Below are positions 18,937 to 31,054 of a stretch of DNA of 32,000 nucleotides, in pieces. Below the pieces are notes generated by a model, which made no database searches, was not told the DNA's origin, and was given only the letters and a program-made list of their open reading frames with translations. Every line of letters starts with the position of its first letter. Position 1 is the first letter of the stretch. Made by a program: the position numbers and the translations under genes. The stretch comes from Candidatus Nanosynbacter lyticus. Lineage in GTDB: Bacteria > Patescibacteriota > Saccharimonadia > Saccharimonadales > Saccharimonadaceae. Where the stretch lies: positions 300,001 to 332,000 of the forward strand of contig NZ_CP124549.1 of assembly GCF_030253515.1 (NCBI RefSeq), in the 5' to 3' direction.

Positions 18937-19656
18937 TTAATCGGTGAACGGTTGCTTAACGAATTCCCCGCGTTTGATGTCGCCGAGGCTGTAATTACCA
19001 AAATCTGTCCGGTGGAGTTTGGTGACGGTGTAGCCGAGGGCGGCGAAGGTGCGGCGGATTTGGCGGTTGCGGCCTTCGCTCATCTGGACGATCCAGCGAT
19101 GGTCGTCGCCCTCGTGCTGGCGTTCGAGCGTTAATTGGCTGGGTCCGTCAGGTAGCTGCACGCCAAAGTCATTGATCATTTGCCGGTGGAGCGGCTGGAG
19201 CGGTTGGTCGAGCGTGACCAGATAGCGCTTTATTTTATAAAACGACGGATGTGTCATTTGATGGGCAAAATCCCCGTCGTTGGTGAGGAGGATGAGGCCC
19301 GAACTGTCTTTGTCCAGGCGACCGACGGGTTTCAAGTGATGGAGGCTGGTCGGTAATAATTCGTAAATAGTCGGTACGCCGCCCTGAGAGGCGCGTGAAC
19401 AGAGGTAGCCGACGGGTTTGTGGAGGAGGATGAGTTGGTGGGTTTGAGCGGTGAGTGGTTTGTTGCCGTAGCGAATGATGTCGGTTGTAGTGATGCGTTG
19501 ACCCAGCTTGGCGGGCTGGTCATTCACCGTGACCTTGCCCTGCTCGATCAGCTCGTCAGCCTGGCGGCGCGACACACCAAGCGCCAGCGCCACGAATTTG
19601 TTGAGGCGCTGGGCGGATGAATCGGTAGAATCGGATGTTTGCGTTGGTGTCGTCAT
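18937..19656 (-). CDS. RsuA/RluB-family pseudouridine synthase with N-terminal S4 domain
   Basis: S4 region (LNKFVALALGVSRRQADELIEQGKV) and catalytic motif GRLDKDSSGLILLTNDG. The start lies 1 nt after the upstream stop. Confidence 0.9.
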   Translation of the reverse strand: MTTPTQTSDSTDSSAQRLNKFVALALGVSRRQADELIEQGKVTVNDQPAKLGQRITTTDIIRYGNKPLTAQTHQLILLHKPVGYLCSRASQGGVPTIYELLPTSLHHLKPVGRLDKDSSGLILLTNDGDFAHQMTHPSFYKIKRYLVTLDQPLQPLHRQMINDFGVQLPDGPSQLTLERQHEGDDHRWIVQMSEGRNRQIRRTFAALGYTVTKLHRTDFGNYSLGDIKRGEFVKQPFTD

Positions 19657-19657
19657 A

Positions 19658-21088
19658 CTAGGAGGCTACCGGTGGCTGCGGCGGAAAGGCGTTGGTCGGC
19701 GGCTGGGGTGTCGCTGGCTGTGCTGTGGGCGATGGCTCACCTTTAGGGGTTGAGGTCTGCTCTGGCTCGGACGCTGGAGCTGGGTCGGTCGGCATCGGTG
19801 CTGGGGTGGGCAGGACGAATGGCGTATCATCATTTTGTGGTTGTGATGATGCCGTGTTGGCGAGCTCGGCATTGATCGCGGTACCGGTATCAAGTGGCTG
19901 GTCATCGGCTGGCGTCGGCAGCGGCTCGAGTGCATCAAGCGTCAGGTCGCCGTGCGGCTCGGTCATAGCATCAGGCGTCGGCAGCGTGAAGTCGTTTGAA
20001 TCTGGCGCTGGCTGTGATGAGGCCTGCATAGACTCGAGTTGGTCGCTGAGCTCCTGTTCCATCATCTTGGACATGTCTGGCTGTGGCTCTTGGCTCAGTG
20101 GCTGGATCACCCGCTCACCACCATGGCTGGTCGGCTGCGGCGATGGTGATGAGACTGGCGCTGTTGGCTCTGGCAGGGCGTCGGCCGGTGGCGTTGGTGC
20201 TGGCTCAGGGGACGGCGCTGGGTCAGAGACCGGAGGTTGCTCTACCTCGGGTGCTGGAGTTGGCGCTGGGTCGGCTGGCGTCACTGGTTCTGTGGTGGCC
20301 GGCTCGGCGGTTTGCTCAGTCGATGCGGACGGAGCCGTCGGTGCCAATGGGGCGCTCGGCAGGACGAACGGTGCTGGGTCAGTTGCTGGAGGGGTCGAAT
20401 TATCTGGATTAGCTTGAGTGGGCGTGGTAGCTGAGCCATCCTGAGTTAGCGGGGCCATCGGTGCAGTCGGTGCTGGGGTGACAACTTGTGTGGCGATTGG
20501 TCCAGCGAATTTATCGCTTTCGAGGACTGTGCGCTGCTCGGCGGGGACGGCAGAAATTTCATCTAAAAACTGTCGAGCCTGCGCGTCGGCAGCTGCTATC
20601 TCTGTCGGTGATGGTAAGGTGACTGCCGGAGCGTCTTGCTGGGTGGCCGGTGCCTTCAACGGCGCGTCAGCTGCTACGGGCTCTGCGGCCGGCTCGGGCG
20701 CGACGGGAGTCGGTTCTGGCGCATCGCCGAGTACTTCGTGGACGGTGCGCACCACGTCTTCGATGCCAACTTGCGACTTAACGAGGTAGCGATCAGCGCC
20801 GAGGGCTTCGCCACGTTGCCGCTGGTCTTCGGATGACAGCGCGGTCATCATGATGACTTTGACGTCGCGTGTCTCGGTGGTCGAGCGCAAGATATCCAGC
20901 ATGTCAAAGCCAGAAATCTTGGGCATCATCACGTCGCTGACGATCAAGGCCGGGCGTTCTTTGATAGCCATAGCCAAGGCCTCTTCACCGTCGCCCGCCG
21001 AAACGATGTCGTAGCCTTCAGCTAGTAACCTGACGCCGTAAATCTCGCGCAGGCTTTTGTCGTCTTCTACTAGTAAAATCTTTGTCAT
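19658..21088 (-). CDS. Response regulator receiver domain fused to a ~355-aa Pro/Ala/Thr-rich low-complexity tail (no DNA-binding domain seen)
   Basis: aa 1-120 form a CheY-like receiver (ILLVEDD..SDVMMPKISG..VKS). The rest is an uninterrupted PAT-rich ORF with recurring PFVLP(S/T)/FTLPTP motifs. Confidence 0.8.
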   Translation of the reverse strand: MTKILLVEDDKSLREIYGVRLLAEGYDIVSAGDGEEALAMAIKERPALIVSDVMMPKISGFDMLDILRSTTETRDVKVIMMTALSSEDQRQRGEALGADRYLVKSQVGIEDVVRTVHEVLGDAPEPTPVAPEPAAEPVAADAPLKAPATQQDAPAVTLPSPTEIAAADAQARQFLDEISAVPAEQRTVLESDKFAGPIATQVVTPAPTAPMAPLTQDGSATTPTQANPDNSTPPATDPAPFVLPSAPLAPTAPSASTEQTAEPATTEPVTPADPAPTPAPEVEQPPVSDPAPSPEPAPTPPADALPEPTAPVSSPSPQPTSHGGERVIQPLSQEPQPDMSKMMEQELSDQLESMQASSQPAPDSNDFTLPTPDAMTEPHGDLTLDALEPLPTPADDQPLDTGTAINAELANTASSQPQNDDTPFVLPTPAPMPTDPAPASEPEQTSTPKGEPSPTAQPATPQPPTNAFPPQPPVAS

Positions 21089-21133
21089 AACTACCCCTAC
21101 TATACCGAAGTTTGCGCCAAAATACTATAGTGG

Positions 21134-23110
21134 TTATGGTTTTTGTTGGGCAGCGTCTGGTTCTGGGGCGGCGAGCGGTACTGATGGCGTGGGTGTAGCG
21201 GTTGGCTCAGTTGGTGGTGCGGGCATCAGCGGCAGCGGACTAAAGTTGGGCGGCGGCACGGGCGGTGTGGCCGGCTTAGTCAGGACGGTAGCGGCGGCAT
21301 CCGGCTGCGTGGCATTGATCGGGACAGTTGGCTGGACGGCGACAGCGGTTGGCGGTTCGGTGGCTAGTGGTGGAGCAGCGGGCGCGGGGGTGGTTGGTAA
21401 TTGGCGCATGGCCTCGTCGGTTCGGGTGCGAGGAATCTCGAGAAAGAAAGTGCTACCCTTGCGGTATTCGCTGATGACGAATAGGCGGCCGGACATCGCC
21501 TCGGTCAAGCGGCGGCTGAGATACAAGCCGAGGCCGGTGCCGCCGATCTCGCGAGTGTCGGAGTTGTCGACGCGGTAGAACTTTTGAAAGAGGTGTGGCA
21601 CATCTTCGGCGGGGATGCCGATACCGCTGTCTTGGACGCTGATGGTGATTGTTTTATCATCGCCGGTGATGTCTACGACTACTTCCCCGTCGGGCGTGTA
21701 CTTGATGGCGTTTTCGATCAAGTTAGAAACAACTTCACGGAGGTGATCGGCGTCAACGTTGGCGTAGTAGGCTGGCTGGACAGTGGCGGCGGCGTCCGGA
21801 CGGAAGGTGCAGACGAGGCCTTTTTCGGCGGCGCGTGGCGCCAGGCCCTCAAAGATCTCGCCGACGAAGGTGGTGATATTGATAATCTGTGGCTCATTCT
21901 TGAGGCGGCCGTCTTCGGCGCGGCTAATGTCGAGCAGGTCTTGGAATAACCGACCGAGGTGCTGGGCTGAGGCGTGGGCCTTGGTGATGAAATCGCGCGC
22001 CTTGTCGTCAATGTGGGCGGTGGCTGGGTTGAGGGCCAGGCCGAGATAGCCCTCGATGGAGGCGACGGGCGTGCGCATTTCGTGGCTGGCGGTAGAGATG
22101 AATTCGGCTTGCTGGCGCTCCTCGGCTTTCTCCTTGGTGATGTCGCGAAAGACGACGATAATGCCTTCGCTATCTTTACCGACTGGCGAGGCGACGATGG
22201 AGACGAGGATTTGCTTGTCAGAGGCGGTGCGGAGGAGTAATTTGTCGGAGTGCGCTGGCCGATTATTGATCAGTGATTGCATGACCGGGTTTTCGGTGAC
22301 GGTGACGTCTTTGCCATCGGCGGTGACTAATTGGATGACGCTTTGCCATTTGAGGCCGAGGGCGTCGCCTTGGTTCCAGCCGATGATCCGCTGGGCTGAG
22401 GGGTTGATTAGCTCGATATTGCCCTCGCGCGAGATGGCCAGCACGCCGTCATCAATGGTGTTAATGACGATGTCAGAGGTGCCCTCGGCGGTGGATAGCT
22501 TGGTGCGAAGTTCAGATATGTCGCCGAGCTTGCTGACGCGTGGCTGATGGCGCCAGATAATAAAGCCAAGAGCTAGTGGCGCCAGGCCAAAAAATAGGGC
22601 GCCAATCGTGGCGATGGGGCTGGCGTGCTGGGTGATGGCGGCAGTGGTGATGGCGGTGACGACGAGGAGGCTGGTGCCGAGGACGACGGGCCAGCCAAAG
22701 AAGCCGGCGAACACCGCAGCGCTGAGCCAGGCGGCGGCGAATGGCGAGGCCAGAAAGCCGCTGGTGGCAACCAGCGAACCGACGGCGAGGATGATTAGGC
22801 CATAGACAGCGATGGATGCGGCGGTGATGGCTCGGCGCGGTAGCCACAGACAGAGGATGAGGGCGGTGAGGCTGACGAGGGCGCTGATGGCGGCGGCGAG
22901 GTCGGTGATGGCTTCGCCGATGGGTAGCCGGTAACCGGTCGGGATAAAGCGCGCCCAGGAGTAGAGGAGGACGATGACCAGCCCGACGAACAAGGCTGCC
23001 TCGCACAGTCGCCGCAGCCAAAATCGCGACAATTCACCGACTTGTGAAATATCCCCCGCCCACTTCATGCTTGTATTATAGACCGAGACGAGCAAAAATG
23101 ATACCCACAT
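21134..23110 (-). CDS. Multi-TM PAS sensor histidine kinase with an ~87-aa Pro-rich C-terminal tail
   Basis: About 6 TM segments, a PAS-like region, H-box SHEMRTPV and HATPase_c (GTGLGLYL). The likely true start is ATG 23068, which has TATAAT 6 nt upstream. Confidence 0.85.
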   Translation of the reverse strand: MWVSFLLVSVYNTSMKWAGDISQVGELSRFWLRRLCEAALFVGLVIVLLYSWARFIPTGYRLPIGEAITDLAAAISALVSLTALILCLWLPRRAITAASIAVYGLIILAVGSLVATSGFLASPFAAAWLSAAVFAGFFGWPVVLGTSLLVVTAITTAAITQHASPIATIGALFFGLAPLALGFIIWRHQPRVSKLGDISELRTKLSTAEGTSDIVINTIDDGVLAISREGNIELINPSAQRIIGWNQGDALGLKWQSVIQLVTADGKDVTVTENPVMQSLINNRPAHSDKLLLRTASDKQILVSIVASPVGKDSEGIIVVFRDITKEKAEERQQAEFISTASHEMRTPVASIEGYLGLALNPATAHIDDKARDFITKAHASAQHLGRLFQDLLDISRAEDGRLKNEPQIINITTFVGEIFEGLAPRAAEKGLVCTFRPDAAATVQPAYYANVDADHLREVVSNLIENAIKYTPDGEVVVDITGDDKTITISVQDSGIGIPAEDVPHLFQKFYRVDNSDTREIGGTGLGLYLSRRLTEAMSGRLFVISEYRKGSTFFLEIPRTRTDEAMRQLPTTPAPAAPPLATEPPTAVAVQPTVPINATQPDAAATVLTKPATPPVPPPNFSPLPLMPAPPTEPTATPTPSVPLAAPEPDAAQQKP

Positions 23111-23167
23111 TGAGCCACGTCATGGCAAGTCAAGCATGGTACGCATTTGGCTGCCCTGAGGGGCCGC

Positions 23168-24427
23168 TCAGCCCTTCCCTAAAATCGCCTCGAGCATCTT
23201 CATTCGCGAGGCCATGATGGCGGGGATGGCACCGCTGATAATGGCGACTACTAGCACAACCTCGGCACGGAATAGCAATTCCCACCACGATATGTTGAGT
23301 GTCACGTCAGCAATTGGCAGACTGAACGGATGCGCCACTACATATGGCACTAGTCCACCGAGGAAAATTACCAAGCCGACCGCTATACCGCACACCGCAT
23401 AAAATAGCGCTAGTAGAACGTAGCTAAAGACGATCACTCGCGGCTTGACGCCAATTGCCCGCTGAATGCCGATTTGCCGCCGCTTGTTGATGATGTCAAC
23501 GTAAATCACGATGAAGATCGTCACCGCCGCAATGATAATGCCAACTATCAGCATAATAGCGTTGAGCGACTGAAAGCTACCGGTAATCGTATCCATAACC
23601 GTCGCTCCGTCACGCCAATCGTGAACCCGCAGGCCCGGATAGTTCAGGTCAGTAAGTGCTCGTTGCACCGACGCTTCCTTGCCGCGGCTGGTGCGCACGA
23701 CGATCATGCTGGCATCGTTCTCGCCAGCCGTCAAATGGCTCGGTATACCGCTGGTGAGCTTGCGCCATAAACCGCGCGAGATGTACGCCTGAATATCTGC
23801 ATTATAGAACTTCGTCGAGGTAATACCGCCGACCTTAACGTTGACCTTTTTACCGTTAACATTTATCGTTACCCGATCGCCAACTTTAACCCCTTCAAGC
23901 GAACCTCTCTCGAGCAGCCGGCTACCCAGCATGATCTCGTCGTCGCTCGCCAAAAACGTTCCATCCGACACGCGATTAGCGACCTCCAGGGTTTGGCGAA
24001 AGGCTTGCGGATTAACGACATTGATCCGGGCCTGCACTTGCTTGTCATCGTTATATCCTAATACCGCCGGCACAGCCAGGATTTTGTCAGCCGCCGTCAC
24101 ACCGTCGATGCGTTTGATCTCGGCCAGCTTGTCATCGACATTGGTGATGTACTCGCCAGGCTTTTTGACATCAATATAGGCCTCACCGACCATTAAATTC
24201 TTGATCTGCGATTCAATCGCCGACGTGACGCCAGCTAGCAGCGACGATATGAAGGCTAGATTAATGAATGCCACCGCCACCAGCAGCGTCGTCAGGCCCA
24301 GAGTCCACTTGCGACCACGCACGATGTACTGCCGCATCAACCGCCAGCCCAGCAAGAACTCGCGCCACAGATTGTTCTTGGGCTGGCGCGGCGTTTGCGT
24401 TTCCTGCGTTTTGCGGGACTGGCTCAT
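23168..24427 (-). CDS. MacB/FtsX-type ABC transporter permease
   Basis: N-terminal TM, ~230-aa extracytoplasmic domain, C-terminal FtsX-like 3-TM bundle, ATGA overlap with the ATPase gene. Confidence 0.85.
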   Translation of the reverse strand: MSQSRKTQETQTPRQPKNNLWREFLLGWRLMRQYIVRGRKWTLGLTTLLVAVAFINLAFISSLLAGVTSAIESQIKNLMVGEAYIDVKKPGEYITNVDDKLAEIKRIDGVTAADKILAVPAVLGYNDDKQVQARINVVNPQAFRQTLEVANRVSDGTFLASDDEIMLGSRLLERGSLEGVKVGDRVTINVNGKKVNVKVGGITSTKFYNADIQAYISRGLWRKLTSGIPSHLTAGENDASMIVVRTSRGKEASVQRALTDLNYPGLRVHDWRDGATVMDTITGSFQSLNAIMLIVGIIIAAVTIFIVIYVDIINKRRQIGIQRAIGVKPRVIVFSYVLLALFYAVCGIAVGLVIFLGGLVPYVVAHPFSLPIADVTLNISWWELLFRAEVVLVVAIISGAIPAIMASRMKMLEAILGKG

Positions 24428-25200: not shown

Positions 25201-25650
25201 CTACTGCAGTTTTGTTATCATTTCTACTTCGCGGACCGTAAGACCATATTTTTCATAGAACGCTATGGCACGCTGGTTGCTGCTCAGCACTTTTAACCGC
25301 AAGGTATCGCAATTTTTACTCTGGAAATAGTGCTTCATTTCATCCATCAAGGTTCGTCCGATACCGCTGCCGCGCTGCCCTGGCTCGACATAAAGCAATC
25401 CGATCCAGCCGTCTTTTCGCGGCGCATGCACTGCATCGAAAACGGCGTCCTGACCAGGCTGATGATCAATAATCACGCCTTGAATAAAGCCGACCACCTG
25501 GCCGTTCTCCTCGGCAACATACATCGCGCCGTCCATATCCTCGCTATCGTCAATCATCCGCTGCATGTAGTCGCGTGCGTGGCAAAGGCTTTCCAGAAAC
25601 AGGGTCAATCTGGATAGTATCACCGGTGATTTCATCAAATAAGAATTCAT
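25201..25650 (-). CDS. GNAT family N-acetyltransferase (5' end uncertain, lies at the island boundary)
   Basis: Acetyl-CoA loop QRGSGIGRTLM and a C-terminal NQRAIAFYEKYG motif. The first ~20 codons lie in the AT-rich sequence that begins near 25640. Confidence 0.75.
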   Translation of the reverse strand: MNSYLMKSPVILSRLTLFLESLCHARDYMQRMIDDSEDMDGAMYVAEENGQVVGFIQGVIIDHQPGQDAVFDAVHAPRKDGWIGLLYVEPGQRGSGIGRTLMDEMKHYFQSKNCDTLRLKVLSSNQRAIAFYEKYGLTVREVEMITKLQ

Positions 25651-25999
25651 CGCCTATAGTATGGACTAAAGCTTTTCTAAACACATTGTTGCCAAATAGC
25701 CGGCTAGCTTCCATGTCATATATACTGCATGCCTTTTTGTCTGCCCTAAGGATATCAGACATATAGTCTTTGCTGGCATACGTATGTCCGTCGCTTTCTA
25801 TGACTATATTGCTGTATAAAAATGCACGACTTTTACCTTTAGGAGGTTCAAAAGACATGTCCCCAATCTTGGTATTGATATCGCTAAGTAGTTTAAGTAA
25901 ACTCTCTCTAGTAAGAACTCCTTCACTTGTTGTAGAGTAAGTATTCTTACTTCGCCATTCTGATACAAATCTAATAAGGTCATCTACTGTTGTTGCCAT
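25550..25999 (-). CDS. Hypothetical protein, third gene of the island operon
   Basis: ATG 25999 with a GGAGAT SD, overlapping the upstream gene by 16 nt. The last ~25 codons run into GNAT coding sequence in another frame, so the true C-terminus is uncertain. Confidence 0.5.
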   Translation of the reverse strand: MATTVDDLIRFVSEWRSKNTYSTTSEGVLTRESLLKLLSDINTKIGDMSFEPPKGKSRAFLYSNIVIESDGHTYASKDYMSDILRADKKACSIYDMEASRLFGNNVFRKALVHTIGDEFLFDEITGDTIQIDPVSGKPLPRTRLHAADD

Positions 26000-26475
26000 A
26001 TCTTATCTCCATTATTGAAGCTTATTATTGCAGTATTTTTGAAGGAAAGTTTTAAGTCTTTATTTGCTGGTGGTAGACTTGAACGACGATAAGCTAGTAA
26101 TGCTTCTTTAAGCATAAATAATAGCTTGTCGCTATGAGGACGTATTTTTTCTGGAGCAACAATCTTAGTAGCTATTATAACGATTTCTTTATTTTGGCCT
26201 ATTATGTCTTCGTAGTAGTCAATCCTTGTAGCAGTGTCCATCCATATTAATACACCAACGCCATCAAAGGCGTTGTCTACACGAAAACCATTATGTGCCC
26301 GACCAAACTGACCCTGTATAGACGCAAAAAGCGCATCCTTTTTCGTATCACGAACGCACATTGTTAAATTACGCTCCATGGTGTCGTCACGACCAGGCCA
26401 GGGTGCGGATAGTTTATACTTTTGTATTATTTCTTTAACTTTTTTCTCGCTGAGCGTCTCGTTTCTAAAATCCAT
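25984..26475 (-). CDS. Hypothetical protein, tandem paralog B (163 aa)
   Basis: ATG 26475 (AAAGGA upstream) aligns with the start of paralog A. Shared blocks: K-VKE(I/L)..KY(K/N)L, VLIW...RID.YE, (K/R)I(V/I)AP and (D/E)(K/E)IW at the C-terminus. Confidence 0.6.
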   Translation of the reverse strand: MDFRNETLSEKKVKEIIQKYKLSAPWPGRDDTMERNLTMCVRDTKKDALFASIQGQFGRAHNGFRVDNAFDGVGVLIWMDTATRIDYYEDIIGQNKEIVIIATKIVAPEKIRPHSDKLLFMLKEALLAYRRSSLPPANKDLKLSFKNTAIISFNNGDKIWQQQ

Positions 26476-26572
26476 ATCATCCTTTCTAAACAAGCTTCTT
26501 GGTGGCTAATATTTCTATAACCGTTAGGTTAATACCCCCTTTTTTCCTTAATAGACCAACTGACAACTCCCT

Positions 26573-27091
26573 CTACAGTTTCCATATCTCATCCTTATCC
26601 ATAAAAGTTATGTCAACTCCTCTAAAACCGCTCTTCTTCTGACTGTCTCTGGGCAGAAGTGTGGCTTGATGAAGAGCAAGAGAACTCTCTTCAACTAGTT
26701 GTGCAATTTTTTCCTTTTCACTCTTCAGTTCAGTCGGAGCTATAATACGATTTGCTACTAGTATGAACTCCTTGATTTGTCCATGTCCACTATTAAACTC
26801 TTCCACATTGAGACCCATAAAACTTTCATACAAGTCTATGCGTATGTTAAACCCCTTCCATATAAGCACATTTATTCGAGGAATTCCTCCTGCGAGTAGC
26901 TGACCGTTAAGAGATACCCCTTGTTGAGACTGTACTGAAACGCATATTGCGTCGTCTTCTTTGCTGTATGCCACTGCAATCATATGGCTATCAAGGGAAT
27001 GGCTGTCGTCAAATCCTGGCCTAATCAGGTTATATTTATCAGTTAATTCCTTAACCTTATCTTTGTCAATCAGTCTACCGATAAAGCTCAT
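26573..27091 (-). CDS. Hypothetical protein, tandem paralog A (172 aa)
   Basis: The start is trimmed to ATG 27091 (MSFIGRLIDKDKVKEL..) by alignment with paralog B. The 43 upstream codons of the listed ORF look non-coding. Confidence 0.6.
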   Translation of the reverse strand: MSFIGRLIDKDKVKELTDKYNLIRPGFDDSHSLDSHMIAVAYSKEDDAICVSVQSQQGVSLNGQLLAGGIPRINVLIWKGFNIRIDLYESFMGLNVEEFNSGHGQIKEFILVANRIIAPTELKSEKEKIAQLVEESSLALHQATLLPRDSQKKSGFRGVDITFMDKDEIWKL

Positions 27092-27288
27092 GATTTTTCC
27101 ATTTAATAAATTAAAACAATTACCTTTATTATAAATATACACTGCAAACCATACAAACTTTTCTTGATAAACAAAGAAGACGGAAACTCCGCCAAATTTA
27201 AAACCTAATTGGTGAGCCAACCAATATAAATGTGGAACTCCTTTTTCGCGATTTGTTTGTACTGCGGGATCGCTTCAAGGAGCTTGGT

Positions 27289-27345
27289 ATGGTTATCAAA
27301 AATGGCGAGGTGTATTTGCCGGATTTGGACGAGCGCGATGTTTAA
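27289..27345 (+). CDS. Possible 18-codon upstream ORF coupled to the nuclease gene, or the tail of a lost gene
   Basis: AAGGAG (27277-27282), 6 nt, then ATG. Its stop overlaps the nuclease start (ATGTTTAA). The frame is open back to 27202 (..VELLFRDLFVLRDRFKELG..). Confidence 0.25.
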   Translation: MVIKNGEVYLPDLDERDV

Positions 27346-27799
27346 TTTGCGAAAATCGAGCTCAAAACTCTACGACCAGAACACTTTTGACGACCAGTTT
27401 ATGCGCGACTTACGAAGAGCCCGAAAAAGCGTTATTATCGAAAGCCCGTTTCTCAGAACTGCCCGAGTTGAAAGATTCATCCCGATATTTCATCGGCTCA
27501 AAAAGCGTGGCGTGGCAATATTGCTTAACACCAAACCGCTTGAAGAATACGATGAGATATACAAATTGCAAGTCCAAAAATCTCTAAGTTCACTACAATC
27601 TGCGGGTGTCGACGTTCTTTTTACAGTCAAACATCACCGTAAATTAGCCATCATTGATAGGCAGGTTATTTACGAAGGTAGCCTAAATATTCTCTCATAT
27701 CACGATAGTTGTGAGATAATGAGAAGGACAGTATCTGTGATTGAAGCGAAAATGTTGATAGATTTTATTGGCTTAAATAAATTCATGGAGGTGAAGTAA
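27338..27799 (+). CDS. Single-HKD phospholipase D-family nuclease (Nuc-like)
   Basis: HKD motif HRKLAIID followed by GSLN. 153 aa from ATG 27338; the upstream part of the listed ORF is low-quality sequence. Confidence 0.8.
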   Translation: MFNLRKSSSKLYDQNTFDDQFMRDLRRARKSVIIESPFLRTARVERFIPIFHRLKKRGVAILLNTKPLEEYDEIYKLQVQKSLSSLQSAGVDVLFTVKHHRKLAIIDRQVIYEGSLNILSYHDSCEIMRRTVSVIEAKMLIDFIGLNKFMEVK

Positions 27800-27801
27800 T
27801 C

Positions 27802-28026
27802 ATGAACGACGAGAACACAATCAAAGATCTTCACCTGTACGAAGACGAAGAAACGATTCAGAAAACGATCCACTATCTGGAGCTTCATGACCCGAACAAC
27901 GCCAATCGCGAATATGCAGTCGGATTTCTGAAATTCATGCAGCGATTTGCACATGTTGCCAGCAAGAGTGAGGGGTTTGATTTTGAGGGGTTTTTGGAAA
28001 AGTATAAAGGCACCAAAAAAGAGTAA
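27802..28026 (+). CDS. Hypothetical small acidic protein (74 aa) immediately after the nuclease
   Basis: The ATG lies 2 nt after the nuclease stop. No motif recognised. Confidence 0.5.
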   Translation: MNDENTIKDLHLYEDEETIQKTIHYLELHDPNNANREYAVGFLKFMQRFAHVASKSEGFDFEGFLEKYKGTKKE

Positions 28027-28043
28027 TAGCCTTTTGCTACTAC

Positions 28044-28319
28044 CTAGCAATCATCTAACCTTGTATGCAATAAGGATAGCACGCTTAAAGCATCCAAACA
28101 GTGTTGCTCGGTAATGACACCTGTCGCAGACAAGTCATTGTGTGTTTCGTGAGATAGGGGATTTCGATAGCCGCTAACGATTCCCGCAGACAAGTACCTC
28201 TGTGCAGCCTCGAGACTTTTCTTGGTTTTGTTATCAAAGGGAGTTCCGTCTGAACGGGTTGCTGATTGCGCAATGTGTAGCACGGCCTCTTGTGGGTTTT
28301 CGCTAAACACTTTCATCAT
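28044..28319 (-). CDS. HEPN-motif protein fragment (TIGR02391-like C-terminal part)
   Basis: Rx4H motif in GYRNPLSHETH, with flanking pattern ..VFSENP.. and ..LSVLSLLHTRLD. The N-terminal helix pair I recall for this family is absent, and stops lie directly upstream. Confidence 0.55.
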   Translation of the reverse strand: MMKVFSENPQEAVLHIAQSATRSDGTPFDNKTKKSLEAAQRYLSAGIVSGYRNPLSHETHNDLSATGVITEQHCLDALSVLSLLHTRLDDC

Positions 28320-28530
28320 TAAAGGGCCTTCGTCTAGCTCACTGATCGTACGAGATTTGTCTGGATTTTGACTAATTGACTTAGCCCTAGGTAAATATTA
28401 GCAGAGTTTTAGTTGAATGTCAAAACATTGCCCGGATAAACGCCCTAAGCGTAAGTCATTTAAAGTACCTCGTGAAATTTATGCTGTGTTTAAGAAAATA
28501 CTAACAACCCTGTGCTATACTTAGACACGC

Positions 28531-28962
28531 ATGGCTTCAAAAAATATTATTCACCGTTATAGTTCAGGAGGGGTTATCCTTAAAGATAACAGGGTTCTTA
28601 TAATTGAATCATTGCAACCAATCAAGGAATATTCTTTTCCTAAAGGCTCTATAGAACCCGGAGAACATCACCGTGACACCGCAGTGCGAGAAATACTTGA
28701 GGAGACTGGATACTACACAACGATTCTAGGGTTTATTGATACTCTAATATATGAATTCTCAACAGGTGATGGACACGTAGTGAAAAAGGTTTCATACTAT
28801 GCTATGTCTATTAATAGCTTAGTGCCTCGGCAGCGACAACAGCTTCAACCGGGAGAGGATATACGCCCCTTATGGGTCAGCTTGCCAAAAGCTTTTCAGC
28901 TCCTCACCCACAAAAACACGAGACAACTTCTTGCTAAGGCAATTAAAATGTACCGTCATTGA
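28531..28962 (+). CDS. Nudix hydrolase
   Basis: Perfect Nudix box GSIEPGEHHRDTAVREILEETGY. TATACT lies 9 nt upstream of the ATG with no SD. Confidence 0.85.
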   Translation: MASKNIIHRYSSGGVILKDNRVLIIESLQPIKEYSFPKGSIEPGEHHRDTAVREILEETGYYTTILGFIDTLIYEFSTGDGHVVKKVSYYAMSINSLVPRQRQQLQPGEDIRPLWVSLPKAFQLLTHKNTRQLLAKAIKMYRH

Positions 28963-29734
28963 AGCAACAACTACCTACAGACTCCTCTACGGTGCGGTGT
29001 GAGAAAAAGTAATTTGCTAGGATGAATATAATATTTCTATCATCTGGAGACATAGCAGCAACATTAAAGACAGTTAGTAGCCTTAGAGACATCATTACGC
29101 ATATCTCTCTATTAATTTTGCTAAGGATATTCTTGTCTATACCTTTGATATAGTACTTCATATAATCATGAACTATTCTTTGGCGTGAGGTATTGAGGTT
29201 TACCCATACTTTACCGTCAGCATGAGTGATCTCTTTAGATCTGCCTAGCGGATTAGGTTTAGACTCTGCCCATTTCGCATACGATGGTCCAAAATAATTT
29301 CCTCCACATATAATATGATGGATGAATGTTGATATGTCAGTAGATAGCCTGTTCCATCCAGCCGCCTCAAAATCAACAAGGTAGCCATTCTGAAAGATAT
29401 TCATATCATGAACATCCCCTTGAGAGGGTATGACATATGTATTATTCATGTTTTTTTGCATATCTTTAACATATTTCTTTACCGCATAAAGCAGGTCGTC
29501 TAGTATATAGACGATTAAGCCGTTCACGCTTTTTAGCGACTCATCCGCACAAAATTCCTCGTATTGTCTCAAAAATTGCGGCGATTCTATCATATGCAAT
29601 CGATTAATATAAAAGCTTTTCGTGCCTCCAGCTTTAATATGAGACCAAATACCCATTGTGTTTGCAAGGCTAGACAGGTCTCTGAAAAACTCAGACATAT
29701 CTATGTCCGCGTCACTACGAAGAATGTGTATCAA
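28943..29734 (-). CDS. APH/choline-kinase-fold phosphotransferase-like protein, N-lobe apparently missing
   Basis: Catalytic-loop-like GDVHDMNIF and a DFE motif (LVDFEAAGWN) sit near aa 105-125, whereas I recall about 190-210 in full-length APH enzymes. The 5' end overlaps the recombinase remnant antisense. Confidence 0.5.
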   Translation of the reverse strand: MIHILRSDADIDMSEFFRDLSSLANTMGIWSHIKAGGTKSFYINRLHMIESPQFLRQYEEFCADESLKSVNGLIVYILDDLLYAVKKYVKDMQKNMNNTYVIPSQGDVHDMNIFQNGYLVDFEAAGWNRLSTDISTFIHHIICGGNYFGPSYAKWAESKPNPLGRSKEITHADGKVWVNLNTSRQRIVHDYMKYYIKGIDKNILSKINREICVMMSLRLLTVFNVAAMSPDDRNIIFILANYFFSHRTVEESVGSCCFNDGTF

Positions 29735-31043
29735 ATCGATTGATCGCTTTACACGAGGTGGTGGTGATTACTATTCTCCGCTCAAGCGGCAGTTGACTAA
29801 GCTTGGTATTGCACTTGAGGATATGTACGGAGTTATTGGTAAGCAGCAAATTAACACTCTTGAGCATACCGGGTTCAAATATTACTGGAGTGAGTTTAAT
29901 CCAACACAAAAATCTGAGTATCTGGAGGCTGAGCGCGCCAAGGACGAGATGCGCGCTGCGCATGTTTATACAAACCCGCAAATTGCCGATGAGCTTAATT
30001 CCATGGGCTTTCGCTCTCGCGTGACGATTGTGCGCGACAAATACGACCGAACAAAAATTAAACGACAGATTGGTGGCCGAAAAATGACTGCCAAAATGAT
30101 TGATCAATACACTAGTAAATTGGTATATTGCGGTATTATTAAGGAAAAATGGACGTATGATAAGCCAGTTAAAGCGCAGTTTGATGGGCTCGTTAGCGTG
30201 GATTTATTCAACGAAGCTAATCGCGGCCGAGTCTTCGTGGAGATTGATAGCCATGATAGTATCACCATTAAACGTAAGGCTGTTCCGAATCATTTGAAAA
30301 GTAAACAAGTTTATAACCCAGATTATCCATATAAGCAGGTAGTTGCCTGTCCTAAATGCGGTAAGACACTATCTGGTAGCGCTCGTGGCAAGCTCGGTAA
30401 ACACTATCCAGCTTATCACTGCAGTCGCGATGGCCATTACTTCCGTGTGTCGAAGCCTGAATTTGATAAGACGATAGAAGACTTTGTGAGGGCTATTACT
30501 ATCAAGCCAGAGTATGTTGACGATGTTATCGCCGCCATCGCTGAATTGTGGCGCGAACGTCAGGCCAAGCAGATTGATGCTAGTAGGCAACGCCTAGAGC
30601 ACCGCGAGAGCTTGCAAAGCCAAATCAAGGTAACCGTTGATCGGATGTGTATTGTCACAAGCGAGACAGCCCTAAAATACCTTGAAGAGGATATTGTTAG
30701 CGTCGAAAAAGAATTAGCAGAGCTGGATGAAGAAATTGCTAGGCAGCCGAATTTACAAGCTGAATTTGACCAAGTTTTGCAATATGCAAAATATATTTTG
30801 GAACACCTTTCAGAGCTGCTACTTGACCTCTGTAATCCACTGCGAAAAGCCGCTTTTTTCGGTGCTATATTCAACAAGCTTCCAACCTACGAACAAATAA
30901 ACTTTGGAACCCACAAAAACAGCCCACCACCAGAGGTAAACGAGCTATTTCAAATCCGAACGGAATACAAATCCCTGTATGGTGACCCTACCGGGAATCG
31001 AACCCGGGTTGCTGGGATGAGAACCCAGTGTCCTAACCGCTAG
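29658..31043 (+). pseudogene. Large serine recombinase lacking the catalytic N-terminal part
   Basis: Recombinase domain and zinc ribbon are present (CPKCGKTL..YHCSRDGHYFRV) with a C-terminal coiled coil. The ORF opens only at the end of the resolvase domain (SIDRFTRGG), so the Ser nucleophile region is absent. The last 21 codons are antisense to the tRNA. Confidence 0.7.
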
Positions 31044-31054
31044 ACGATAGGGCC
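30980..31054 (-). tRNA. tRNA-Glu (anticodon CUC), CCA encoded
   Basis: Hand-folded cloverleaf. Acceptor GGCCCTA/TAGGGTC, D stem GTCT/GGAC, anticodon stem CTGGG/CCCAG with loop TTCTCAT. 4-nt variable loop, T arm CCGGG-TTCGATT-CCCGG, discriminator A plus CCA. Confidence 0.9.

Follow-up and report, generated by a model that had tools for sequence, protein, structure and literature searches.

The 32,000-nucleotide stretch of the Candidatus Nanosynbacter lyticus genome considered here (contig NZ_CP124549.1, positions 300,001 to 332,000, hereafter the window) carries two small neighbouring genes, A and B, that belong to a protein family named SMALL in this work. On a judgement slightly better than even, drawn from the comparison of sequences across relatives, SMALL proteins are cytosolic immunity proteins of a polymorphic toxin secreted by a type I system. 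The locus in the window is a decayed remnant, in which the putative immunity genes have been retained and the toxin and its exporter are missing. An earlier note on this DNA had suggested a polymorphic immunity array or an anti-phage module of three genes, lying on a mobile island and arranged divergently from a nuclease gene. The immunity-array part of that suggestion is supported by the coupling of SMALL genes to toxin ends, the joint swapping of cassettes, the mixed arrays in which orphan genes persist under purifying selection, and another type of payload that has a partner family of its own; links with the nuclease and with defence were not supported.

A and B align end to end with 28% identity in BLASTP (E 1e-24), which places their paralogy far beyond chance. 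The blocks VLIW, RID.YE and (I/V)AP and a C-terminal IW are common to both proteins, and all that had been said earlier of diverged tandem paralogs with shared blocks, including the open reading frames (ORFs) themselves, is present in the window. The end of B (25984) overlaps the ATG of the next ORF, C (25999), by 16 nucleotides, and a GGAG motif lies 11 nucleotides 5' of this ATG, in agreement with the overlap and the separate Shine-Dalgarno sequence reported for a third gene. A, B and C are exact matches to the Ca. Nanosynbacter lyticus proteins WLD46722.1, WLD46721.1 and WLD46720.1, all annotated 'hypothetical protein', and the earlier statement that they hold no recognised motif is borne out by Pfam, PADLOC, NCBIfam and PHROGs, where none of the three has a match.

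The context of these genes is best seen in relatives. A scan of a genome collection gave 33 loci, all from metagenome-assembled genomes of Ca. Saccharibacteria, and the set that was annotated, with hidden Markov models built locally, consists of the window and 47 fetched loci (designated by L numbers). About 25 loci contain an intact operon with a constant order: one to five tandem SMALL genes, a large gene that overlaps the last SMALL gene by 13-16 nucleotides, an ABC transporter gene and a gene for a membrane-fusion protein. The large protein has 1,070-1,932 residues, all its carriers are Ca. Saccharibacteria, and its layout is composed of a variable N-terminal payload of about 475 residues, an Asp-Pro bond, a self-processing module (SPM) of the FrpC type, RTX repeats and a C-terminal block similar to those of HlyA and CyaA. 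The payload can be divided into a hypervariable N-terminal domain (NDOM, toxin residues 1-135), a middle region and a hydrophobic Gly-rich segment, the strongest hydrophobic stretch covering residues ~401-447. In the 1,235-residue protein of L007, the FrpC SPM is matched by residues 471-640 (6sjw, E 8e-41), and similarity to the RTX blocks at the C-terminal ends of CyaA and HlyA covers residues 1062-1204 (E 2e-42 to 1e-21). The Pfam families found on the large protein are HemolysinCabind and HCBP_related, and PF26745 is on record for L007 and L048. The sequence R-I-D|P precedes the SPM in nearly all loci and R-V-D|P in three, the bond being D476-P477 in L048. A payload profile compared with PDB sequences found nothing, and the structure prediction for the toxin N-domain was unsuccessful, with a predicted local distance difference test score (pLDDT) of 45.

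The ABC transporter (749-774 residues) is HlyB-like and carries an N-terminal Peptidase_C39-like domain with the sequence DPGLYCF, in which a proline occupies the presumed position of the catalytic cysteine. Since the cysteine would be replaced, this domain would be inactive, as in the HlyB type, if this reading, which is our own, holds. The membrane-fusion protein has ~447 residues and belongs to the BSH and Beta-barrel_AprE families. By gene order and domains, the relatives have an RTX operon for type I secretion that belongs to the 'clip-and-link' kind known from FrpC. The features that define SPM-RTX proteins, namely the Asp-Pro bond with its SPM, the RTX repeats and the C-terminal secretion block, are all found in relatives, and the part of the gene that encodes them has been lost from the window.

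This loss can be traced through ORF C (25550-25999, 149 residues), which is homologous to the N-terminus of proteins of >1,000 residues encoded after A-like or B-like genes in other contigs. Window positions 26480-25575 align with positions 275-1180 of L048 at 98.2% nucleotide identity, and the reading frame of C, which in L048 runs on for 1,932 codons, leaves this frame in the window after codon 142 and continues out of frame to a stop at 25550. The supposed third gene of 149 residues is thus a stub holding codons 1-142 of a 1,932-codon gene, and the idea of a working three-gene module falls with it, the third ORF being dead and the toxin and exporter missing from the locus. The alignment ends at 25575, and GC content changes across this junction from 0.39 to 0.52. 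Lost in the deletion were ~5.4 kb of toxin sequence, both genes that follow it (ABC and membrane-fusion protein) and the 5' end of a GNAT acetyltransferase gene, the remnant of which is host DNA outside the module. For this 5'-less GNAT gene, an ORF caller would give a 149-residue product beginning in the toxin stub. The truncated allele (...PLPRTRLHAADD) recurs in other samples and in another complete genome, which speaks for a real deletion, fixed in a lineage, and rules out an artefact of assembly; full-length alleles of 1,931 and 1,932 residues exist in metagenomes.

The two SMALL genes of the window differ in what is left of their toxin genes. B is 98% identical to a protein in L048-L053, where its gene overlaps that of the 1,932-residue SPM-RTX protein by 16 nucleotides, and B is the cognate partner of the truncated toxin gene. 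Orthologs of A in L005-L012 are 87-89% identical to it and overlap a full-length SPM-RTX gene by 13 nucleotides. In the window, A is followed by a vestige of such a gene, the first 16 nucleotides of which, ATGGAAACTGTAGAGG, are the same as at the boundary of A with the large gene of L006; after about codon 5 the resemblance to L006 is lost, and L019 shows the same breakpoint. A is an orphan copy whose own cognate toxin gene is gone. Nevertheless, orphan copies are kept under purifying selection. The ratio of nonsynonymous to synonymous substitution rates (dN/dS, omega) is 0.14-0.28 between A of the window and its orthologs, including omega 0.14 at dS 1.06 against L001, where both copies are orphans, and 0.16 against L015. 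Most pairs of A orthologs have omega between 0.06 and 0.3, and a few pairs at dS < 0.06 reach 0.64.

Variation among the relatives is concentrated at the 5' end of the operon. Over 21 unique pairs, mean identity is 51% for SMALL, 64% for NDOM, 74% for the middle region, 71% for the hydrophobic segment, 89% for the SPM and 85% for the region after it. Within NDOM, the first ~60 residues are conserved and the variable stretch lies at about residues 60-135. Individual pairs of loci are mosaics: L019 and L006 share 97% identity in the hydrophobic segment, 98% in the SPM and 97% after it, with only 43-44% in NDOM and 31% in the adjacent SMALL protein, and L026 and L034 share 98% in the hydrophobic segment and 95% in the SPM, with 43% in NDOM and 41% in SMALL. 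These mosaics indicate that SMALL and NDOM move together as a cassette on a conserved chassis. All 26 genes of the NDOM type are coupled to a SMALL gene through the 13-16-nucleotide overlap. A variable end on a conserved chassis, a neighbouring gene that co-varies with it and arrays of orphans and fragments, which together characterise polymorphic toxin-immunity systems, are thus found in the relatives; in the window itself the conserved chassis is missing and codons 1-142 alone remain.

SMALL genes outnumber toxin genes by about 4:1. There are 93 of them (3 truncated). For 75 unique copies, the coupled partner is a full-length toxin gene in 17 cases and a stub in 9; 46 lack a downstream NDOM ORF, and the last 3 stand at a contig end where no judgement can be made. 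Grouping at >=80% identity gives 13 subtypes, and 54 of 64 orphan or stub-linked copies belong to a subtype that is coupled to a toxin gene in another genome. The stubs in the arrays are mostly 37-48 residues long (a few have 63-72), lengths that fit recombination in the conserved 5' segment of the toxin gene pushing older cassettes upstream. It is here that the main rival of the immunity reading can be weighed, namely that SMALL proteins are cytosolic secretion chaperones or holdases that keep the toxin N-terminal domain export-competent or inactive and have no role against incoming toxin. Translational coupling to the toxin 5' end, co-variation with NDOM and a cytosolic location would all suit a chaperone, as would the fact that the N-terminal domain is the last to leave the cell in type I secretion, which proceeds from the C-terminus; the interaction would physically be the same as in the immunity reading, and the same binding is predicted. 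A chaperone is not expected, however, to exceed its clients fourfold, to persist intact under purifying selection after the client is lost, or to occur as 2-5 diverged paralogs before a single toxin gene, and this alternative is considered unlikely.

A second type of payload adds to the argument. In L028, L042, L044 and L045 the same SPM-RTX chassis has another N-terminus of ~412 residues, a class-3 lipase with a GHSLG motif (Lipase_3, PF01764, 27.6 bits against a cut-off of 22). The overlapping upstream gene encodes not a SMALL protein but a protein of ~248 residues whose N-terminus is a membrane anchor (hydropathy over 19 residues 3.1 at residue 16) and whose bulk is predicted to lie outside the cell. 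This anchored family has 44 members in 26 loci, occurs as tandem paralogs in arrays interleaved with SMALL genes and has no match in Pfam. All four lipase-type genes pair with the anchored family and none with SMALL. Immunity proteins are typically sited in the compartment in which their toxin would act, and the anchored partner fits this pattern; for the chaperone alternative, a membrane-anchored partner lying mostly outside the cell is unexpected, although a Lif-like foldase is conceivable. Alignments reveal a similar motif, F/I-x-R-x-x-(T/D)-K-E...L-x-x-K-Y, in SMALL residues 3-22 and at about residues 33-55 of the anchored proteins, in both cases at the start of the soluble part. Homology of the two families is unsupported by hhalign (probability 0.5%), and the common motif could reflect convergence or a very distant relationship.

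The SMALL family itself appears to be tiny and was found only in Saccharibacteria. An exhaustive profile search of 1.84 billion representatives returned just 24 proteins at E <= 1e-3, essentially all of them family members, and word-seeded homology searches returned close relatives only. The survey of family distribution and neighbourhoods proposed in the earlier note showed an association with RTX and type I secretion genes and no link with a defence system. For 15 members searched at E <= 10, Pfam yielded just a spurious sub-threshold match to HU-CCDC81, and a SMALL profile compared with PDB sequences gave nothing. The Foldseek comparison that had also been proposed was run for A, using an AlphaFold2 model with an alpha/beta fold (pLDDT 85.8, predicted template modelling score 0.84), and yielded no significant match in PDB or BFVD, the best PDB match having E 0.047 and a template modelling (TM) score of 0.28. 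Among 106 unique sequences the conserved positions are mostly in the hydrophobic core, with R84 and Y88 in addition, and no His, Cys or Ser is conserved. Neither a signal peptide nor a membrane segment was detected, the maximum 19-residue Kyte-Doolittle value being 1.07 for A and 0.76 for B. Two proteins from the profile search stand out: P0051 (234 residues) looks like a SMALL protein with a duplicated C-terminal half, and P0049 (1,586 residues), a repetitive protein rich in Cys, Asp and Glu, matches the SMALL profile weakly in four stretches (E 1e-5), probably spuriously.

These properties bear on two further alternatives. Acyltransferases of the HlyC type have about 170 residues and are encoded just upstream of the RTX gene in hlyCABD operons, and a SMALL protein that activates the toxin by post-translational modification, as HlyC and CyaC do, would have the same size and operon position; several GNAT-fold proteins are also found among the weak Foldseek matches (E 0.05-1.3). 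On the other hand, no match to HlyC (PF02794) or to an acetyltransferase family appears in Pfam even at E <= 10, the fold matches are insignificant (best E 0.047, TM 0.28-0.35) with no toxin-activating acyltransferase in the top 50 PDB matches, and the His of the expected catalytic His/Asp pair is not conserved. An enzyme would also have no need to diversify to 25-30% identity alongside NDOM or to persist in 2-5 copies. The acyltransferase was rejected on the missing PF02794 match, fold match and His, and is very improbable.

Only marginally better placed is a FrpD-like role, in which the payload would be linked covalently to the target surface by Ca2+-dependent clip-and-link and bound by SMALL, helping the epibiont to adhere to its host. 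The SPM is shared with FrpC, and frpC is directly preceded by the gene for FrpD, which binds FrpC residues 1-414 with a dissociation constant of ~0.2 nM (PMC5233953; PMC7078468). FrpD, however, is an outer-membrane lipoprotein, and SMALL proteins, having no signal peptide, lipobox or membrane segment, are not surface-displayed. The lipoprotein signal peptide, surface display and the FrpD fold are all absent from SMALL as far as the searches reach: the whole-PDB Foldseek search gave no significant match, the presence of FrpD entries in that PDB copy being unconfirmed. An adhesion anchor would moreover leave the arrays of diverged orphan copies unexplained. The FrpD-like lipoprotein was rejected on the missing lipoprotein signal, and this role is regarded as quite improbable.

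Under the immunity reading, the operon anatomy, the identity of the SPM-RTX protein, the co-swapping, the match of payload and partner and the excess of orphan copies under selection would be joined as follows. The toxin would exit the cell via the type I system, and extracellular Ca2+ would fold its RTX and SPM parts. The SPM would then cut the Asp-Pro bond and free the payload, possibly with a reactive anhydride end, and the freed payload would act on neighbouring cells, to which it would be toxic. SMALL, translated along with the toxin N-terminus, would bind NDOM and shield the producer, and additional diverged SMALL copies would guard against toxin variants of rival strains. New cassettes of SMALL and NDOM would be acquired through recombination within the ~45 conserved codons that open the toxin gene, each entry shifting older SMALL genes and short 5' stubs upstream. 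In the window, A is left as an orphan with an 18-codon vestige and B with codons 1-142 of its toxin, so that immunity alone would survive.

Several points weigh against this reading. Toxicity, binding and protection are predicted properties of the payload and of SMALL, and the payload has no recognisable toxin domain; no cytotoxicity has been recorded for RTX proteins with an SPM (PMC7078468). The hydrophobic Gly-rich segment could itself be toxic, as a pore or ionophore, and the immunity protein would then be expected in the membrane, whereas SMALL is soluble. The usual place of an immunity gene is downstream of its toxin gene, and only the N-terminal position of the toxin domain is offered to account for the upstream placement seen here. 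Co-variation is expected of linked genes even when their products do not interact. In L039 and L037 the NDOMs are 100% identical and the adjacent SMALL proteins only 54% identical, which breaks strict pairing, and the genome could encode, at some other locus, a matching toxin for which the orphan copies are kept.

The surroundings of the module were also examined in view of the earlier description of a mobile island. GC content falls from ~0.55 to ~0.39-0.42 between ~25.6 and 31 kb, and a low-GC stretch beside a tRNA gene is indeed present; it is not a single island, however, but a composite. The attachment-site remnant tggtgagccaacc (27210-27222) matches tggtgaccctacc (30980-30992) at 11 of 13 bases, and in L015, L016, L017, L021 and L023 a position equivalent to ~27215-27222 of the window joins 30980 directly, the intervening element being absent and gene A directly adjoining the tRNA gene. 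Its absence from these five relatives and its flanks, the 3' end of tRNA-Glu and a degenerate copy of it, mark 27223-30979 as a separate insertion. The element carries a PLDc_2 nuclease-like gene (27230-27799), a 74-residue ORF, a Hypoth_Ymh fragment (the Hypoth_Ymh/TIGR02391 match is to a C-terminal part), a NUDIX gene, a 263-residue ORF and a large serine recombinase that is 5'-truncated; lacking the N-terminal catalytic region of its recombinase, the element is probably immobilised.

An anti-phage system made up of A, B, C and the divergent PLD nuclease could draw on the low-GC island adjoining a tRNA gene and on weak PADLOC matches of the PLD protein to the nuclease regions of Mokosh MkoC/MkoB and of the NUDIX protein to PDC-S07. 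A, B and C themselves have zero matches in PADLOC-DB v2, the PLD and NUDIX genes lie on the separate insertion with its own attachment-site remnant, and the conserved neighbours of SMALL genes are those for the type I secretion proteins (ABC and membrane-fusion protein) and the RTX protein. Homologs of the PLD gene are located elsewhere in L020 and L023, and the PLD nuclease is no conserved partner of A and B. A functional link with the nuclease, which sits on a separately integrated element and whose adjacency is not conserved, is not supported, and a PLD-linked defence system, contradicted by synteny, was rejected and is scarcely credible.

Other loci show further traces of mobility. In L005-L008 and L051, genes for a full-length serine recombinase and a Replic_Relax protein, together with two small ORFs of which one is weakly ParD-like, stand at tRNA-Glu immediately upstream of the toxin operon. 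L009 has an IS1595 transposase directly next to gene A, and its ABC gene is preceded by pieces of the post-SPM and RTX regions. The toxin operon as a whole may be mobile as part of an integrative element. Elsewhere in the window, positions 19000-23200 have a GC content of 0.59-0.63 (0.43-0.50 in other parts) and encode a response regulator and a histidine kinase whose long C-terminal tail is rich in Pro, Ala and Thr, and the product of a 461-residue ORF at positions 316-1701 has a GNAT acetyltransferase domain followed by an ASCH domain at the C-terminus. A promoter and terminator scan gave counts within about two standard deviations of the shuffle expectation. The features are collected in Table 1.

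Table 1. Features of the SMALL locus and its surroundings in the window, and of the lipase-type genes in related loci.
Feature	Location	Strand	Remarks
GNAT acetyltransferase remnant	25201-25574	minus	5'-truncated; PF00583, E 3e-22, profile positions 17-115
Deletion junction	25575/25574		end of the alignment with L048
Toxin-gene 5' stub (ORF C)	25575-25999	minus	codons 1-142 (N-terminal domain NDOM) of a 1,932-codon SPM-RTX gene
Small paralog B	25984-26475	minus	163 aa; exact match WLD46721.1 / WP_162454128.1
Vestige of the cognate large gene of A	26529-26585	minus	18 codons, METVEGVV...*, overlaps the last 13 nt of A
Small paralog A	26573-27091	minus	172 aa; exact match WLD46722.1 (NLML1_0342)
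Attachment-site remnant tggtgagccaacc	27210-27222		degenerate copy of the tRNA-Glu 3' end; left edge of the separate element
Separate integrated element	27223-30979		~3.8 kb at tRNA-Glu; outside the module
tRNA-Glu(CTC)	30980-31054	minus	integration site
Lipase-type genes	L028 13671-16700; L044 11428-14457		also in L042 and L045

The system can be compared with several known ones. With FrpD-FrpC of Neisseria meningitidis and ApxIVA of Actinobacillus pleuropneumoniae it shares an SPM after an Asp-Pro bond, RTX repeats and a C-terminal secretion block. As in the FrpD-FrpC pair, a small gene lies immediately upstream, and the prediction is that SMALL interacts with the N-terminal fragment in the way FrpD does with FrpC 1-414 (PMC5233953). 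In contrast, the host here is an epibiont of the Saccharibacteria and the candidate phyla radiation (CPR), although the SPM has been described as exclusive to Gram-negative bacteria (PMC7078468). The payload here is polymorphic (NDOM or lipase), and SMALL is cytosolic, unrelated in sequence, without a significant fold match in the PDB and present in arrays of diverged copies, whereas FrpD is a single surface lipoprotein. The likeness to hlyCABD consists in a small gene for ~170 residues, an RTX gene, an ABC gene whose C39-like domain is inactive in our reading and a membrane-fusion protein gene; SMALL is not, however, an acyltransferase of the HlyC type, and the RTX protein here has an SPM and a swappable N-terminal cassette.

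In contact-dependent inhibition (CDI) systems, with CdiA-CT and CdiI, and in Rhs systems, with Rhs-CT and RhsI, a conserved chassis carries a hypervariable toxic end that is exchanged together with its cognate gene, and arrays of orphan immunity genes and toxin fragments are left behind. The SMALL system likewise has a chassis, a variable end, an abutting gene that swaps with it and displaced orphan arrays. Its polarity is mirrored, the variable payload being N-terminal because the type I secretion signal is C-terminal, and with an N-terminal payload the immunity genes and orphans stand upstream and the stubs are 5' fragments. Export would also proceed by a type I system with Ca2+-triggered self-cleavage and not by type V or type VI machinery. 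The type VI pairs Tle and Tli resemble the lipase cassette, though not A and B, in that a lipase payload with GHSLG is paired with an extracytoplasmic, membrane-anchored partner encoded as tandem paralogs; the secretion route and the protein families differ.

The literature searched contained no account of toxins of the RTX, SPM or type I secretion kind in Saccharibacteria or Patescibacteria. A polymorphic toxin-immunity system with mirror-image polarity, type I export and release by an SPM would thus be new, and it would bring together three parts that are unlinked in the searchable literature, namely type I RTX secretion, the clip-and-link SPM of FrpC and cassette exchange of mirrored polarity. 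More tentatively, and at less than even confidence, the system may be an undescribed weapon of oral Saccharibacteria, a type-I-secreted RTX protein whose swappable N-terminal toxin is released by the SPM and possibly clipped and linked to its target, with arrays of SMALL and anchored proteins standing guard. If so, the weapon would be aimed at rival epibionts or at the actinobacterial host, and SMALL proteins would have a new fold and form the first family of cytosolic immunity proteins against an SPM-RTX toxin.

The strain Ca. Nanosynbacter lyticus ML1 has been cultivated and is naturally transformable (PMC10633639), and since the proteins of the window are exact matches to those of ML1, the predictions are directly testable. 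The locus points to a compact toxin system restricted to Saccharibacteria, by which SPM-RTX proteins would gain a concrete biological role and two new candidate immunity families would be added. It bears on the competition among Saccharibacteria and other CPR epibionts and on the damage to or exploitation of their hosts.

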